This document shows, one piece after another, positions 26,582 to 53,837 of a DNA stretch of 64,000 nt. The notes beneath the pieces were generated by a model. That model saw only the letters and a list, made by a program, of their open reading frames with translations, did no database searches and was not told the origin of the DNA. The stretch spans positions 8,947 through 72,946 of the forward strand of contig CALXBW010000001.1 in the NCBI GenBank assembly GCA_944386645.1, given 5' to 3'. Position 1 is the stretch's first letter, and every line of letters starts with the position of its first letter. This stretch comes from an uncultured Clostridia bacterium (GTDB lineage: Bacteria; Bacillota; Clostridia; TANB77; CAG-508). Position numbers and translations under genes: made by a program.

Positions 26582-29500
26582 ATGCTAAAGGGGAGAAATT
26601 TAAAATCTAAATACAAATTATTAGAAAAAATATTAGTAGTGTTAATAATAGTATCATTAACATTCACTAATTTACTAATTGTAGGAAATGCTTTAATATC
26701 ATATGCAATTGATAGTAATTTAGATTCACAAAATGAAAGTACTACAAATGAAAATGTTAAATTTGATACATTTTTTAATGAAGGTAATGGTAAAACACAT
26801 TATCTTGTTTATGATGTGAATAATGCTGAGAAACAAATGTATATAAATTTATCTATAAAAGAAGGTTATTTAAAAGATTCAGTTATTGAATTTAATGATA
26901 TGAATTATAATATTTCAAATATTATTGATGAAAATGGAATTGTGCAAGGTGCAACTAATAATAAATTAACATTAAGACAAATAGATACAAATACAAATGC
27001 AAATTTAATATTATCTATAAATGATGTTATTGAAGATAAAATGGAAAAAGATAATTTAGATAAGAATATAAAAGTAAAATTAAAAGGAACATATGTAGAT
27101 AATAAAGGTGAAGAAAAGAATATAGAAAAAGAAATATTATTAAATATAAAATTAACAGGAAAGTATGAAATAGAATTAAAACAAATTGCAAATTCATATT
27201 TATTATTTAATGATAATAATGAAACAAAAGCATTAATAAGTATTAATTTAGAAGCGGGATTAAAAGAAACAGAAAATAAATTACCTATTAAAGAAACAAA
27301 ATTAGAGATAGAAGTACCAAAGTTAAATGGAATAGAACCAGAAGATGCAAGAGTTTTAACTAGAGGTACACAAGCTACAAATGGAAAAACAATAGAAGAA
27401 ATAAAACAAGAAGAAAATATAACAAATTATGATAAACAAAACAGTATATTAACAATTGAAACTGAAAATAATGAAGATGAAGGTAAGGTATGGAATGGTA
27501 AAGGAATAGATGAATATGTAATTACATACATATATCCAATAGAAGCAATAAGCAAAGATTTAGAAAATATTTTGACTTCAAAAATAAAGGCAGAAATGGA
27601 ATTTTATGATGGAAATAAGATACAAGGTGAAACACAAGGAAATATTTTATTAAAAGAGCAATTTGGACAGATGTTAACATTAAAATTAAATACAAAGGAA
27701 AATAAGATAAATAAAGGTAAAATGTATGCAAATTCACAAAGAGAAGAAAAAGAATATGAAACAGTTTATAATATGGAAGTAAAAGCGAATATTGAAGAAA
27801 AAGATTTAATAGATGGAATAAGAATAAGTGATTTAGGTGAAAGTTTTGAAGATAAAAATGGAAACAAATATGCAACATCAATAGGAGATCAAACTTATAC
27901 ATATTATAAAAAAATAAAAATAAGTAAGGCAAATTTTGAAGAAGTATTAGGGTTAGATGGAAAAATAATAATATATGATGGAAATGGAAATATATTAGGA
28001 GAAATTAATAAAAATTCAAAAGTAGAAGATGAAAAATATGTATTAGAAGGATTAGCAGAAAACGTAGGACATATAACTCTAGAAACTACAAAGCCAGAAA
28101 AAGAAGGAACAATAAGTATAGAATATGAAAAAGCAATAAGAAAAGATTTGACTTATACCAAAGAACAATTAGAAAATTTCGTAAAATTTAATGTAAGTGC
28201 AAACATTGTGGAAAAACAAGGAGAAAATTATATTCAAATTGAAAATAAAACAAGTGATATAGAATTAGAAGAAACAAATACAAAAGCAAATATAGAAATA
28301 GGAAAAGAAACATTATCTACAATAGTGAATAATGAAAACGTAGAGATAAAAATAGAATTAGATAACAATAGAGAAAATACTGACCTTTATATAAATCCAG
28401 TATTTAGAATAGAATTACCAGAATATATAGAAGATATAAATGTAAAAGAAGCAAATGTATTATTTGATGATAATTTAAAAATAAGTGGAATACAAAAATA
28501 TAATGATAATGGTAAAATAATATTAGAAATATCGTTAGAAGGTGTTCAAGATGGATTTAGTAGTGGAACATTTACAAATGGAACAAATATAGTATTAAAC
28601 ACAGATATAAAAGCCAAATTATTAACACCAAATAAAACAGAAGAAATAAAATTATATTATTATAATCCAAATGCAATAAGTTATGAACAAACAAGTCAAA
28701 TGTGGAATCAAGAATTGGGAACAAGTCAGACAGAAGTTGGATTTTCTGCGCCAGTAGGAATGCTTGCAGTAAATAATATAACAAATTATGAAGACACAGG
28801 AAAAAGTATAATGTCAGTAGAACAAGGCAAGATGGAAGATATTATAGAAATTTTTGCAAAAGAAAAGATTGCAAAAATGAATATGATGATTGTAAATAAT
28901 ACAGGCAATGATTGTAATAATATATTTGCAATAGGTAGAATTCCTTTTAAAGGAAATAAGACTATAGAAAGTAAAACTGATTTAAAAACAACAATTGATG
29001 CATATATGCAAGGACCTATAACAATAAAAAATAATATAGAAGGAGTAAAAATATATTATTCAGAAAATGGAGAAGCAACAGAGGATTTAAATAATATAGA
29101 AAATGCATGGCAAGAAAGTCCTACAGATTTTACAAAAGTAAAATCATATATGATTGTTTTAGATAATTATATAATGAAAGCCGGAGAGATGATTGAATTA
29201 TCATATGATTTTAAGATACCTGCAAATCTTGAACATGAAAATAATATATATGGGGCTTTTGCTGTAGAATATGTAGAAAATTCATCTGTAGGTGTAAAAC
29301 AATTAACTAAAGAAGCAGATACTGTAGGTTTAACAACAGGAGAGGGACCAAAGCTAAAAATAGAACAAGAAATATCAGTTGGAGAAGGACAACCAATACA
29401 AGAAGGACAAATTGTTAAATATACTATAAATATAACCAATACAGGAACAAATATTGCAGAAGATATAGTTGTAAAAGATTATATTCCAGATTATACAAAA

Positions 29501-52200: not shown

Positions 52201-53837
52201 CAACTATTAATATTAAAATCGCAGAAGGTGCAGAAAGAACAATGAATGGTATTGTTTGGGAAGATGAAAGAACAGAGGAGTTATCTACAGGTCAAGTTGT
52301 TGGAGATGGCTTAATGGATAATAATGAAAATAAAGTAAATGGAGTTACAGTTCAATTAGTTGAATTAGTAGATGCAGCAGATGGTAATCAGTATGAATAT
52401 ATTTGGAGAGAAATGTCAACAGGTGAAAATGGATACAAATATGTAGATAGTAACGGTCAAGTATTATCAGGACAATGTGGTGAAGTAATGGAAGGTTCTG
52501 TACAAAATGAAATAGGACAATACATATTTAGTAACTATATACCAGGAAATTACATTGTAAGATTTAAATATGGTGATACAGAAAAAACATTATTACCAGA
52601 AACAAATGGAAAATCATATAATGGACAAGATTATAAATCAACAGCATATCAAAGAGGAGAAAATATAAATAATGAATGGTATGACTTATCAAATACTGAA
52701 TTAATGGATTCAAGAGTTTCAGATGCTAAAGATAATGAAGCTAGAAGATTACAAGTTATAAATTATTCTAAAGTAATGAAATTTAATGTTGCAGATGTAT
52801 TATATTCAGTAGAAAATAATAAGACTGATTTATATGATGATTTTATTAATAATACTTGGATGTATGCAGATACAGCAAAATTAAAAATACAAGTAGAATA
52901 TGATAGAACAGAAGCAAATGGTTCAGATGAATTTGACTATAATGTAAGAAATATAGATTTTGGTATTGAAAACAGACCTGTAAATGATGTTGAATTAGAT
53001 AAAGATATTATGGGAATTAAAGTAACATTAGCAGATGGAAATACTATTATAGACACAGAAAATGGTATTAATAAAAATGTTAACTGGGTAGCAAATAATG
53101 ATACAACACAAGGAAAAATCCATGTATATCTTGATGAAGAGTTAATGCAAGGTGCAAATATTGAAATTAGATACAGAATTACTGTTAAAAATAATGGAGA
53201 AATAGATGTTACAGGAGCAAATGATAATAGTGTTGGTGAGACATATTACACAGGTAAAGCAAGTGATTCAGATAGAATTGTAACAACATCTATAGACAAG
53301 ATTATAGATTATGTAGATAATAGTTTAGTATTTAAAGAAGATTTAAACCCAGGATGGAAATTGATTGAAAATACTGATCTAAAGAGTGTTGATGAAATGA
53401 AACAAAATGGATATTTGGATAATAATTTAAGTGTTGCTTATAAAAATATCAAAAATGAAGAAAAACCAGTAAGTCAAATAATTGTAAACGATACATTAGC
53501 AGATGATCCATTAACACCAGGACAATCAGCAAGTGTAGAATTAGTTCTAACTAAGACAATATCTTCAGCTGATGAGTCAGATGATTTATCTTATAACAAT
53601 GTTGCAGAAACAATACAATTTACAAACTTAGTTGGTAGAAAAGATGATATACCAGGAAATAAAGCACCATATGAAGCAGTACCAGGAGAAAATGATTCTG
53701 ATTATACAGAAGAGGTTATCATTACACCTCCAACTGGTGAAAATAGATCAACAGTATATATTATTTCAGCAATCGTTATATTAGTTGTAATTGCAGGAGT
53801 TGCAGTATTTGTAATAAGAAGAAATAAAAAAGAATAA
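49239..53837 (+). CDS. giant secreted surface protein, B-type paralog (1532 aa): signal peptide, TED/TQXA-like head (FCKE…TQNAMW), short WPDWPDYPD spacer, SdrD-B/CnaB repeats, C-terminal …ITPPTGEN + TM + RRNKKE
   Basis: RBS taagggaggtgg, 16 nt after the stop of F. Close paralog of D. Confidence 0.8.
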   Translation: MKKKISIVVIAIVVIGIVLAVNMNKSEALEEEVLDPGYVQKDLTSTSVAESNTLNGREFTQGGYLSFEEYNQTKEAFCKEHGQRLTGEENTRVQIGSIDQKVIDPQQGQTIRLDGDPGTSGTKSESLAKYTSVIRKKAGVDSDWAMAYVMEKFPNNIDHLNGETQNAMWGTLGQAQFNELAEEAMAFQEYKQRVQNSGGFKGQYKIDLSTVSFDETADEIIVGPLSVKYERGFAKIGSRPKVDFGGIKEIKLYDQDGREIDKSIWKITYDAEHKNTRKERLAGDEDYGTTGSEFFNYPYSGEEFNIVLNGTKCKEYGITKITRADVILYDTNIVADYQDMSGVYKDVYWDVQYDSSICHPQTEYDPITGTNRVIPCEHGYTSSHEVRTNYRIVANVTELSPQKIMMVLKVEKTVDTGILELTPEPPRYTTPITPLPAIPTIISWPGYPSYPNFPCYPDWPDWPDYPDWPDWPDEPEEPDISLTIKLSGVVWEDTQTGKESEYDGMIGNQNDGTPEKGVPNVKVTLYKAGTKELAEAKENPVYTNEDGEYYFTRVPMGKYEVEFEYDGMTYTTTKAFANGSVEDYKNNPDDTKYVVDSKTEETQEARTTFNNKFYEISGDTTTATTSGKSYGSARDANGNKTADLEYITENGVSKLVTTDTNGYVKPEFAITASTATMDLAYPFKERYTNNEEDKLIDNNVYEANYKYMNYINLGLKRRPEADLAVSKDVSTATLTINKKEMTYKYNSRAGLDGFDITVKTSPSYNNTYYNREIYKSDYNYRIDDYKNNTLNVSGAELKGTKTEEQELKTFVTYKMTIRNQSGIPATVVNELVDYYDNTYNLVSEDVHMDIQNADGVEEKGKLVARKSYYETTNGQSGTINWSDTGKYQTDTDKAGTELNVMYTTDLKDVVLQSGEDMYIYVTFEVNKDANRAIMLGEKSNFIEINSFSTFESGSGKNTPTGQVDRDSAPGNLNPYDTATIEDDSDSAPTINIKIAEGAERTMNGIVWEDERTEELSTGQVVGDGLMDNNENKVNGVTVQLVELVDAADGNQYEYIWREMSTGENGYKYVDSNGQVLSGQCGEVMEGSVQNEIGQYIFSNYIPGNYIVRFKYGDTEKTLLPETNGKSYNGQDYKSTAYQRGENINNEWYDLSNTELMDSRVSDAKDNEARRLQVINYSKVMKFNVADVLYSVENNKTDLYDDFINNTWMYADTAKLKIQVEYDRTEANGSDEFDYNVRNIDFGIENRPVNDVELDKDIMGIKVTLADGNTIIDTENGINKNVNWVANNDTTQGKIHVYLDEELMQGANIEIRYRITVKNNGEIDVTGANDNSVGETYYTGKASDSDRIVTTSIDKIIDYVDNSLVFKEDLNPGWKLIENTDLKSVDEMKQNGYLDNNLSVAYKNIKNEEKPVSQIIVNDTLADDPLTPGQSASVELVLTKTISSADESDDLSYNNVAETIQFTNLVGRKDDIPGNKAPYEAVPGENDSDYTEEVIITPPTGENRSTVYIISAIVILVVIAGVAVFVIRRNKKE

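Follow-up and report, generated by a model that had tools for sequence, protein, structure and literature searches.

Tandem pairs of giant surface-protein genes and the hairpin-bordered spacer between them in an uncultured gut Clostridia bacterium

Seven giant genes and the divergence of their pairs

The window analyzed here is a stretch of 64,000 nucleotides (nt) from an uncultured Clostridia bacterium (GenBank assembly GCA_944386645.1, contig CALXBW010000001.1, positions 8,947 to 72,946 of the forward strand). It contains seven giant surface-protein genes, A to G, all on the + strand in the list of open reading frames (ORFs), and, between genes D and F, a spacer that holds gene E and three copies of a hairpin repeat called J. 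The locus is enclosed by chromosomal genes on both sides, with TatD, HtpX, LemA, HtrA, and pyrimidine nucleoside phosphorylase on the left flank and ZnuABC, RuvA, and MgsA on the right. The A-B pair (13570-26414), which carries DUF11/CLIPPER and SdrD_B domains in Pfam, is the oldest paralogous two-gene module and is composed of gene A (13570-18867; 1765 amino acids, aa) and gene B (18879-26414; 2511 aa). The product of gene C (26582-31873) is of the A type, a fibrillar surface protein 1763 aa long with three CLIPPER domains and SdrD_B, and gene D (31953-36617) encodes a B-type surface protein whose called ORF of 1554 aa is without a signal peptide. Gene E (38341-43368) has 1675 aa if read from GTG, or 1672 aa from ATG at 38350; it is followed by gene F (43964-49222; 1752 aa) and gene G (49239-53837; 1532 aa), the latter having its signal peptide in frame. 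The window has a GC content of 26% and a GC skew that climbs steadily across it, and relatives of its adhesin region were found solely in metagenome-assembled genomes (MAGs) of uncultured gut Clostridia from human, deer, rabbit, and mouse.

Two of the gene pairs, C-D and F-G, are paralogues of each other, with their genes in the same order and direction at a distance of 17.4 kb. In a self-comparison with blastn, 26615-33316 aligned with 43994-50656 at 78.8% over 6754 nt, and 33353-36605 with 50567-53821 at 82.6% over 3259 nt. The full gene span gives 78.4% identity at the nucleotide level, with 200-nt windows from 39% to 93% and no exact run longer than 43 nt, and the proteins share 74.7% (C/F) and 75.3% (D/G) of their residues. 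A preliminary description of this DNA had called the two units near-identical over long stretches, down to the intergenic ribosome-binding site (RBS), and the duplication recent. The near-identity is contradicted by these values; what stands is the junction, since both pairs have a similar stop-RBS-start arrangement, the gap between the A-type and the B-type gene being 11-17 nt. Only weak similarity is left in the promoter-proximal regions of C and F. The same description had the A-B pair as far more diverged, which is borne out by an amino acid identity of 42%-43% between A and B and their C/F and D/G counterparts and by DNA patches of 64%-66%. Synonymous divergence (dS) by the Nei-Gojobori method is 0.51 for C/F and 0.71 for D/G, values near saturation in this AT-rich genome, with a nonsynonymous divergence (dN) of 0.16 and a dN/dS of 0.23-0.32.

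The age of the duplication was examined against a sister species, represented by loci L004-L007, which is 90.8% identical to the window in the ZnuA-RuvA flank and 83%-91% in the genes; the F-G orthologues in L004 and L007 are 89%-91% identical. In neighbor-joining trees, the method used for all trees here, C, D, F, and G each cluster with their own sister-species orthologue in 100/100 bootstraps. Over the 10-kb unit, 819 informative sites support the grouping of orthologues versus 118 for the grouping of paralogues. These clades and site counts, together with dS and the shared layout of the loci, show that the C-D/F-G duplication predates the split from the sister species, which refutes a recent origin, and it may be older still. 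Of the features of a recent segmental duplication, the collinear direct unit was found, while identity of at least 95% over kilobases and clustering of paralogues were not.

More distant genomes also have tandem loci. A genome of 53% identity (L008) carries two pairs with a spacing of 344 nt, and among other distant MAGs, JAFUGK01 (from roe deer) has three and CAKOTZ01 (a Hadza MAG) has two. In the tree of A-type genes, C and F are nearest each other (100%), with both L008 genes outside, while in the tree of B-type genes D and G join separate L008 genes (83% and 58%). This placement would fit the idea that F-G was acquired horizontally, as a divergent allele or a xenologue of C-D, and integrated beside the resident copy at a J-rich site, as would the demonstrable receipt of units by the D-F spacer and the mosaic allelic diversity within the species: when C of the window is compared with C of the conspecific L003, identical stretches of 600-1400 nt alternate with diverged patches. 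We regard such an acquisition as improbable, since the A-type tree joins C and F to the exclusion of both L008 genes, tandem arrays of the module are common across the clade, some weak similarity survives between C and F near their promoters, and no J is present between B and C.

The number of pairs appears to be stable. The conspecific contig L003 (ERZ27280526) covers B, C, D, the spacer, and the 5' end of E at 96%-97%, with A-B orthologues lying upstream of C or its orthologue C' in L003, L005, and L006 (primes mark orthologues in other genomes), and two further conspecific contigs, L001 (ERZ28614617) and L002 (ERZ24773305), cover the 3' end of E, F, G, and the downstream region at 99.3%-99.6%. 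In the sister species, the single contig L004, which from its name (tig…) is probably a long-read assembly, runs from C' and D' through the spacer to F', G', and ZnuA...RuvA-MgsA. All junctions of the window thus recur in independent assemblies from other samples, and the order A-B, C-D, F-G is found in at least nine assemblies from the two species; a differing pair number was not seen in any assembly of either species. The rapid variation in copy number that had been predicted from long, similar repeats is not borne out by this comparison across strains. Copies of 78% identity whose exact runs reach 43 nt at most offer little substrate for recombination. A mis-joined second copy, or a misassembled C-D/E/F-G order, might be suspected in a window that resembles MAG sequence, at a site where short-read contigs tend to break (in the D-F spacer of L005, L006/L007, L067, and L068). 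Such an artefact is hardly credible, as the junctions recur independently in L003, in L001 and L002, and in one contig in L004, and copies at 78% are too different to be collapsed or mis-joined.

Gene conversion between the copies does occur in relatives. The segment of C concerned lies at 27944-28786 (+ strand, aa 455-735), its equivalent in F being approximately 45323-46165. Over the equivalent ~0.85 kb in the sister species, C' and F' are 92%-99% identical, against 77%-86% on both sides, and dS in this tract is 0.12 for C'/F' versus 0.39-0.43 in the other three comparisons. The tract has 28 paralogue-type versus 2 orthologue-type informative sites, and it is found in the apparently long-read contig L004 too. 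In L003, 18 of the 21 differences from C of the window at 27982-28182 show the F state, a patch of ~200 nt that includes an 84-nt exact C/F match. No recent tract was detected inside the window, where even the segment of highest similarity has a C/F dS of 0.39. Outside the tract, 806 sites are of orthologue type versus 90 of paralogue type, the copies evolving independently. The copies do exchange sequence by conversion, but seldom, in short tracts, and solely within their most conserved segment (~1 kb of 10); the proposal that long similar repeats would promote conversion holds only for its occasional occurrence in relatives. The sister-species tract, with paralogues closer than orthologues, is shared with the concerted evolution known from surface genes, from which the locus differs in that conversion is rare and affects ~1 kb of a 10-kb unit.

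A recent segmental duplication, with long similar repeats driving variation in copy number and sequence, would account for the collinear, direct units at their spacing of 17.4 kb and for the short conversion tracts in relatives. It is nevertheless very improbable in view of the 78% identity with its short exact runs, the dS of 0.5-0.7, the fully supported orthologue clades with three pairs in every assembly of two species, and the window's lack of any recent tract.

Allelic variation was also observed in single genes. In L003, a GAA to TAA nonsense change at 13613-13615 (window ~30194) affects codon 1205 of C within an otherwise identical stretch; either C is truncated or inactivated in some strains, fitting paralogue redundancy, or the change is a sequencing error. 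The dN/dS of D versus its orthologues is 0.10-0.16, so that D is under strong purifying selection. D contains a Pro-rich linker (33257-33462; PDWPDYPDEPD...) derived from a 9/45-nt tandem repeat, with 22.9 of the 9-nt units in D versus 5.6 in G (50603-50656). The alleles of D range from 1469 to 1583 aa, and it is chiefly in this linker that the B-type proteins vary in length.

The D-F spacer, gene E, and the J repeats

What differs between strains is the D-F spacer, not the number of pairs. In the window, the spacer is composed, in order, of a terminator, J1, a dead ATPase gene, a 35-aa ORF, J2, ~600 nt, E, ~360 nt, and J3. The intrinsic-terminator-like hairpin after D (36632-36660, +) is kept in the sister species (L004 6522-6584, 92%). 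J1 (36661-36706, +) consists of degenerate heptads and the hairpin GCAACC-ATC-GGTTGC, and a J is found in the same place after D' in L004, L005, and L006. It is followed by an AAA_14/DUF4143 ATPase pseudogene (36797-37219, +) spread over three frames, which confirms that a decayed AAA-ATPase lies between the copies. Two of its pieces align with a Fusobacterium gene over ~900 nt, from which an internal loss of ~0.5 kb follows, in addition to the frameshifts; DUF4143 is recognized with E=3e-9 and the AAA_14 N-terminus (Walker-A) with E=2e-4, below the curated cutoff. Intact AAA_14/DUF4143 genes fill the same spacer in sister strains, and this gene family is matched in PADLOC by PDC-S01, a candidate defence family. 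When the spacer from 36618 to 38340 was compared with phage records, no match was obtained, and among plasmids the ATPase remnant alone was matched, to a Fusobacterium record.

The 35-aa ORF (MTQSDLVLRLVEMLLEQKEQNEKQSKVEENKKSKD; 37341-37503, +) has a good RBS and a terminator-like hairpin of its own and gave no Pfam match. It faces a minus-strand promoter at 37659-37631 (11/12, extended TG) that has its own terminator at 37578-37554. The supposed GC-richer patch at 37.3-38.1 kb shrinks to a single 200-nt bump at 37300-37499 (35.5% GC), the sole GC-richer spot in the spacer, the remainder at 23%-28% lying at or below the window mean.

J2 (37690-37735, +), with the compensated stem variant GCGACT-GAA-AGTCGC, forms the left edge of the unit that carries E, and J3 (43726-43792, +), with a 12-bp stem around GCAACC-AAA-GGTTGC, forms its right edge. 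E has Cna_B, four MucBP (E=2e-40), and CLIPPER domains in Pfam, and its first ~300 and last ~200 residues are 25%-31% identical to A-type proteins. E is found in the conspecific L001-L003 and is absent from the D-F spacer of the sister species. E-like genes in sister genomes are 76%-88% identical at the nucleotide level (79%-86% over the best-aligned 55% of E). In L064, three of them lie at another locus together with AAA_14/DUF4143, TraG-like, and HEPN/nucleotidyltransferase genes, and each of these E-like genes has J copies on both sides, ~160-230 nt past the stop and ~255 nt ahead of the start; in L065, the downstream J alone was found. Both flanks of E in the window (37693-38298 and 43396-43755) are homologous to these E-like flanks: J2 and what follows it align with the sequence ahead of E' at 79% in L064 and 72%-87% in L065, and 43396-43755 matches the 3' flank of E' in L064 at 69%. 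Because the flanks of E are homologous to the J-bordered flanks in L064 and L065, the E unit extends from J2 to J3 (37.69-43.79 kb). To the right of it, the sequence from J3 to the start codon of F is orthologous to the sister species (43735-43964 versus L004 9769-10000, 87%), and the right-hand orthology breakpoint beside E falls within J3. The preliminary description had foreign DNA inserted at the duplication junction; inserted material is indeed present, in the form of E and the decayed ATPase, but a foreign origin was rejected for E, given its 76%-88% relatives in sister genomes and its terminal modules resembling A-type proteins. E is a diverged paralogue of the same surface-protein family.

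The 3' flank of E (43409-43651) has perfect sigma-70-like promoters (TTGACA-17-TATAAT) on both strands, at 43409-43437 (+) and 43651-43623 (-). They converge on a strong bidirectional terminator at 43474-43512 and would yield two short convergent transcripts. The sole small ORF in this flank encodes 19 aa on the minus strand and is not hydrophobic, so there is no obvious type I toxin.

Five configurations of the spacer were found among strains. The window and L003 have J - pseudo-AAA - J - E - J. L004 and L006 have J-J-K-J-DUF3800-J-K-J-AAA-J, in which the AAA gene is intact, E is missing, and K denotes a second repeat. In L069, the AAA gene lies directly after D' with no J between, while L066 has a truncated J and then the AAA gene on the minus strand. 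The fifth configuration, in L067 and L068, has a MucBP-coding fragment from ~25 nt past the D' stop. There, D' runs into MucBP-repeat coding sequence ETAEEMTGRAGEDYVTIAKDIENYT (L067 10545-10647; L068 6031-6111), where both contigs end, and the breakpoint falls in the terminator loop of L066 (5375-5420); the joint looks like illegitimate recombination between D' and an E-like gene. K is a repeat of ~130-200 nt, represented in the window by a 199-nt imperfect palindrome after G (54395-54589) and in L004 by copies at 6915-7040, 8035-8165, and 21630-21820, and it is interleaved with J in the sister spacer.

J is built of an A-rich lead (AAAATAAATT), three to five ATTCAYY heptads, a 6-7-bp stem GCAACC/GGTTGC with any 3-nt loop, and AGNT. 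The three J motifs that had been reported at the edges of the inserted block were recovered, and none was found elsewhere in the 64 kb. Among 24 distinct copies, 98.6% of the stem cells are paired, and the loop is hypervariable. Compensatory double changes were found at two of the six pairs (A-T to G-C and C-G to T-A; 8 cells), which 0 of 500 shuffles reached, and sliding the 3' partner by one to three columns reduced pairing to 41% or less. DNA folding z-scores range from -2.6 to -5.3. The copies are nearly all oriented like the big genes, three stand in tandem in L007, and J is confined to the species of the window and its closest relatives, being absent from 56 loci of more distant Clostridia; a scan of JGI metagenome contigs and IMG/VR for the exact J pattern gave 0 matches and hence no link to phages. 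Several known element types were considered for J and rejected. It is not a known RNA family, as Rfam gave no match to it (nor to anything in the whole window at gathering thresholds, the two matches in the spacer at E<=1 both being at chance level). No T-run follows it as in a terminator, and a simple 6-7-bp hairpin with heptads is not an attC site.

The account that we consider probable combines old and stable tandem pairs, turnover of a J-bounded spacer, and rare conversion. The two-gene module was duplicated twice, giving A-B and then C-D/F-G, before the split from the sister species, and both C-D and F-G have since been kept as distinct genes under purifying selection. The spacer is a hotspot at which self-contained units, such as the E-type MucBP adhesin, AAA_14/DUF4143, and DUF3800, are gained, lost, or left to decay between copies of J. 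In the window, it holds two J-bounded units (J1 - dead ATPase - J2 - E - J3). J would act as portable homology or as recombination sites that move units between adhesin loci, a role we infer from the position of J.

The main rival to J-mediated movement holds that J is a passive REP-like (repetitive extragenic palindromic) selfish or structural element, for example, a stabilizer of mRNA 3' ends or a protein-binding site, and that the spacer turns over by illegitimate recombination and the insertion of selfish or defence genes. It is a possibility to be taken seriously, if somewhat less than an even one. No recombinase is linked to J, the junction of L067/L068 versus L066 breaks in the terminator loop and not at J, L069 has its ATPase gene next to D' without an intervening J, and one copy in L065 (3505) stands between housekeeping genes. 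Against a passive J speak the placement of the copies after the stop and before the start of the E-like genes in L064, the fact that J bounds both units of the window, and the orthology breakpoint within J3. A stronger version of J-mediated movement, in which a hairpin-recognizing recombination system targets J and shuttles adhesin and defence units between docking spacers, is unlikely on present evidence.

Several points weigh against the account of old pairs and J-bounded turnover as a whole. The A-type and B-type trees conflict on whether the duplication predates the L008 lineage. The comparison sequences are mostly short-read MAG contigs, in which chimeras between paralogues are possible. 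E may have been gained in the lineage of the window or lost in the sister lineage, and the bare 344-nt spacer of the outgroup L008 favours gain. No recombinase or transposase gene was found adjoining any J copy, and none cognate to J was seen in the ~180 kb of the two species that were covered. The apparent enrichment of J beside surface genes is biased, as most of these ~180 kb were fetched as flanks of adhesin genes, and the L065 copy at 3505 stands between unrelated housekeeping genes. Canonical LPXTG is absent from the protein tails, and the window contains no sortase gene.

The closest functional analogy to J is found in Neisseria, with no sequence relationship between them. Arrays of neisserial intergenic mosaic elements (NIME) with dRS3 repeats, together with minimal mobile elements, flank surface-protein genes, vary at syntenic sites, and have been proposed as recombination substrates; NIME arrays were not observed outside Neisseria according to the same source (PMC1797815). 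Shared with J are the hairpin repeat arrays by surface genes and the alternative units at one syntenic site. Unlike NIME, J has a heptad-repeat arm and one small hairpin, with copies nearly all one way; natural transformation and a candidate phage recombinase for dRS3 are features of Neisseria that are not known here. That J would be a Gram-positive counterpart of the NIME/minimal-mobile-element arrangement, complete with a recombinase, belongs to the hairpin-recombination reading and would be equally doubtful. With REP sequences and bacterial interspersed mosaic elements (BIME), J has in common that it is a small, intergenic, multi-copy hairpin with compensated stems, sometimes clustered, as the three tandem copies in L007 are. 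Unlike REP/BIME and IS200/IS605 elements, it has no RAYT or TnpA gene in sight, and its copies are co-oriented. REP sequences are characterized by a GTAG-type conserved 5' tetranucleotide and by alternating copies, and J has neither. Of the features of a REP- or NIME-like element, a compensated multi-copy hairpin was found, as were arrays beside surface genes, the latter under biased sampling. Like an integron array, the locus has gene-sized units parted by structured repeats at one chromosomal site. Unlike an integron, it has no integrase in the window or the compared loci, J is far simpler than attC, and the units carry promoter-like sites of their own and lie on both strands. Membership in the integrons was rejected, as every feature tested (integrase, attC, and promoterless co-oriented cassettes) failed.

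The encoded proteins and the leader of gene D

CLIPPER (DUF11 under its earlier name) belongs to the stalks of fibrillar adhesins; it is a CnaA-like domain, often with an isopeptide bond (bioRxiv 10.1101/2025.04.25.650565). An AlphaFold model of residues 36-935 of C is an all-beta rod of Ig-like beta-sandwich domains with a pLDDT of 87.8. Its best PDB match is to the Ig-like domains of the enterococcal adhesin PrgB, and the Foldseek matches are generic strings of Ig domains with low TM-scores, from which no ligand can be inferred. In a sequence search of the PDB, C matched the SdrD B-domain alone and G matched nothing. An exact-sequence look-up of protein C returned no record. By inspection, A, B, C, E, F, and G have a hydrophobic N-terminal segment, and all seven proteins end in xxTG (VKTG, VATG, VSTG, PPTG, or APTG), a hydrophobic membrane span, and a basic K/R tail. 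The tail motif, [ST][VPA]xTG, is like a sortase signal but not a canonical LPXTG, and the only NCBIfam match to the tails is weak (EF0750_LPXTG, E=0.005); it may be akin to (S/P)PXTG and NVQTG, which are carried by the SrtB substrates of C. difficile. No ligand-binding domain was recognized in the A-type or B-type proteins in Pfam, PDB, and model searches. The label of adhesin is well supported for E by its MucBP domains, and for the other proteins of the A-G set it is reasonable by architecture.

The tandem fibrillar adhesin families of Gram-positive bacteria, such as the staphylococcal Sdr proteins and the CLIPPER proteins, likewise consist of very large exported proteins whose stalks are chains of Ig-like domains (CLIPPER, SdrD_B, Cna_B), encoded by side-by-side paralogues and ending in a C-terminal signal, membrane span, and basic tail. 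Unlike in the Sdr-type families, the duplicated unit here always couples two unlike giant genes across a gap of 11-17 nt, the motif is [ST][VPA]xTG and not LPXTG, no sortase is nearby, and no head domain is recognizable in the A-type and B-type proteins.

D lacks a signal peptide in its called ORF, as do all D-clade proteins in the database, and it gets one solely if its leader is read through a +1 shift. The leader ORF in frame 0 (31886-31960, +) has a strong RBS and ATG and reads MKKKIVVIWAILII, then R (CGG at 31928), YNCNIINYV, and a stop. From this CGG, the +1 frame reads GIIVILSIMFNKSIA/LEEE, completing the signal peptide, and the shifted leader resembles the one-frame signal peptide of G (MKKKISIVVIAIVVIGIVLAVNMNKSEA/LEEE). 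The shift site AT[TCG]-CGG-[TA] is kept in four leader alleles and nine assemblies of both species, including L004, with the CGG at 31928 in the window and at L003 15281, L004 1711, L005 15290, L006 15807, L066 692, L067 5907, L068 1393, and L069 925. The leaders share the patterns MKKKIV.I..ILI in frame 0 and GIIG.L...NKSxA/LEEE in the +1 frame, and the alleles differ in the +1 segment by conservative substitutions. Among the 17,147 codons of the window, CGG occurs once, and no CGG frameshift site besides that of D was found there. As expected of a hungry-codon shift, a conserved 0/+1 overlap is present at a rare codon, with both frames conserved. The closest precedent found is in glass-sponge mitochondria, where +1 frameshifts occur at extremely rare CGG_A codons, with C inserted 5' of GGA (PMC5009743), and influenza PA-X provides another +1 precedent at UUU_CGU (PMC3498833). 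On balance, a programmed or tolerated +1 frameshift in the leader of D is more likely than not.

Flanking regions and biological meaning

The region after G is likewise variable. A small NUDIX gene follows G (53930-54376), and a 33-codon remnant of a second AAA_14/DUF4143 gene lies at 55375-55473, just upstream of ZnuA; the intact gene that follows G' in L004 matches it at 91%. L001 has ~1.2 kb of extra DNA at the point after G (12567-13811). Farther to the right, the gene directly after RuvA (58079-59923) encodes an MgsA/RarA-type AAA+ ATPase (MgsA_C E=1e-65) and not RuvB, an order also present in the sister species (L004). A 48-nt tandem repeat of 3.9 copies (61053-61241) is located within the minus-strand ORF 61002-61673. 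The left flank has an unrelated 129-nt dispersed repeat in three copies, at 1707-1835, 3190-3317, and 5391-5587 (inverted); the better pairs are 88%-90% identical and the third copy 69%. No tRNA or tmRNA genes were found in the window. The neighbors of the module that are kept in distant genomes are a penicillin-binding protein and SpoIIE, a plain chromosomal context without a functional clue. A mycoplasma-type genetic code, considered because of the 26% GC, was rejected, as table 11 leaves ORFs of 1500-2500 codons uninterrupted and TGG occurs 116 times.

Tandem giant surface-protein paralogues are a common route to surface diversity in gut bacteria, and the duplication itself is ordinary. The locus parts two modes of change, namely, old and stable pairs with rare conversion versus an often swapped spacer, in which entire adhesin or defence-type genes come and go between J copies. 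If the shift in the leader of D is real, it would be a case of chromosomal bacterial recoding at an essentially unused CGG codon. If J is a recombination site, it would provide a handle on the reshuffling of surface and defence genes in uncultured Clostridia.

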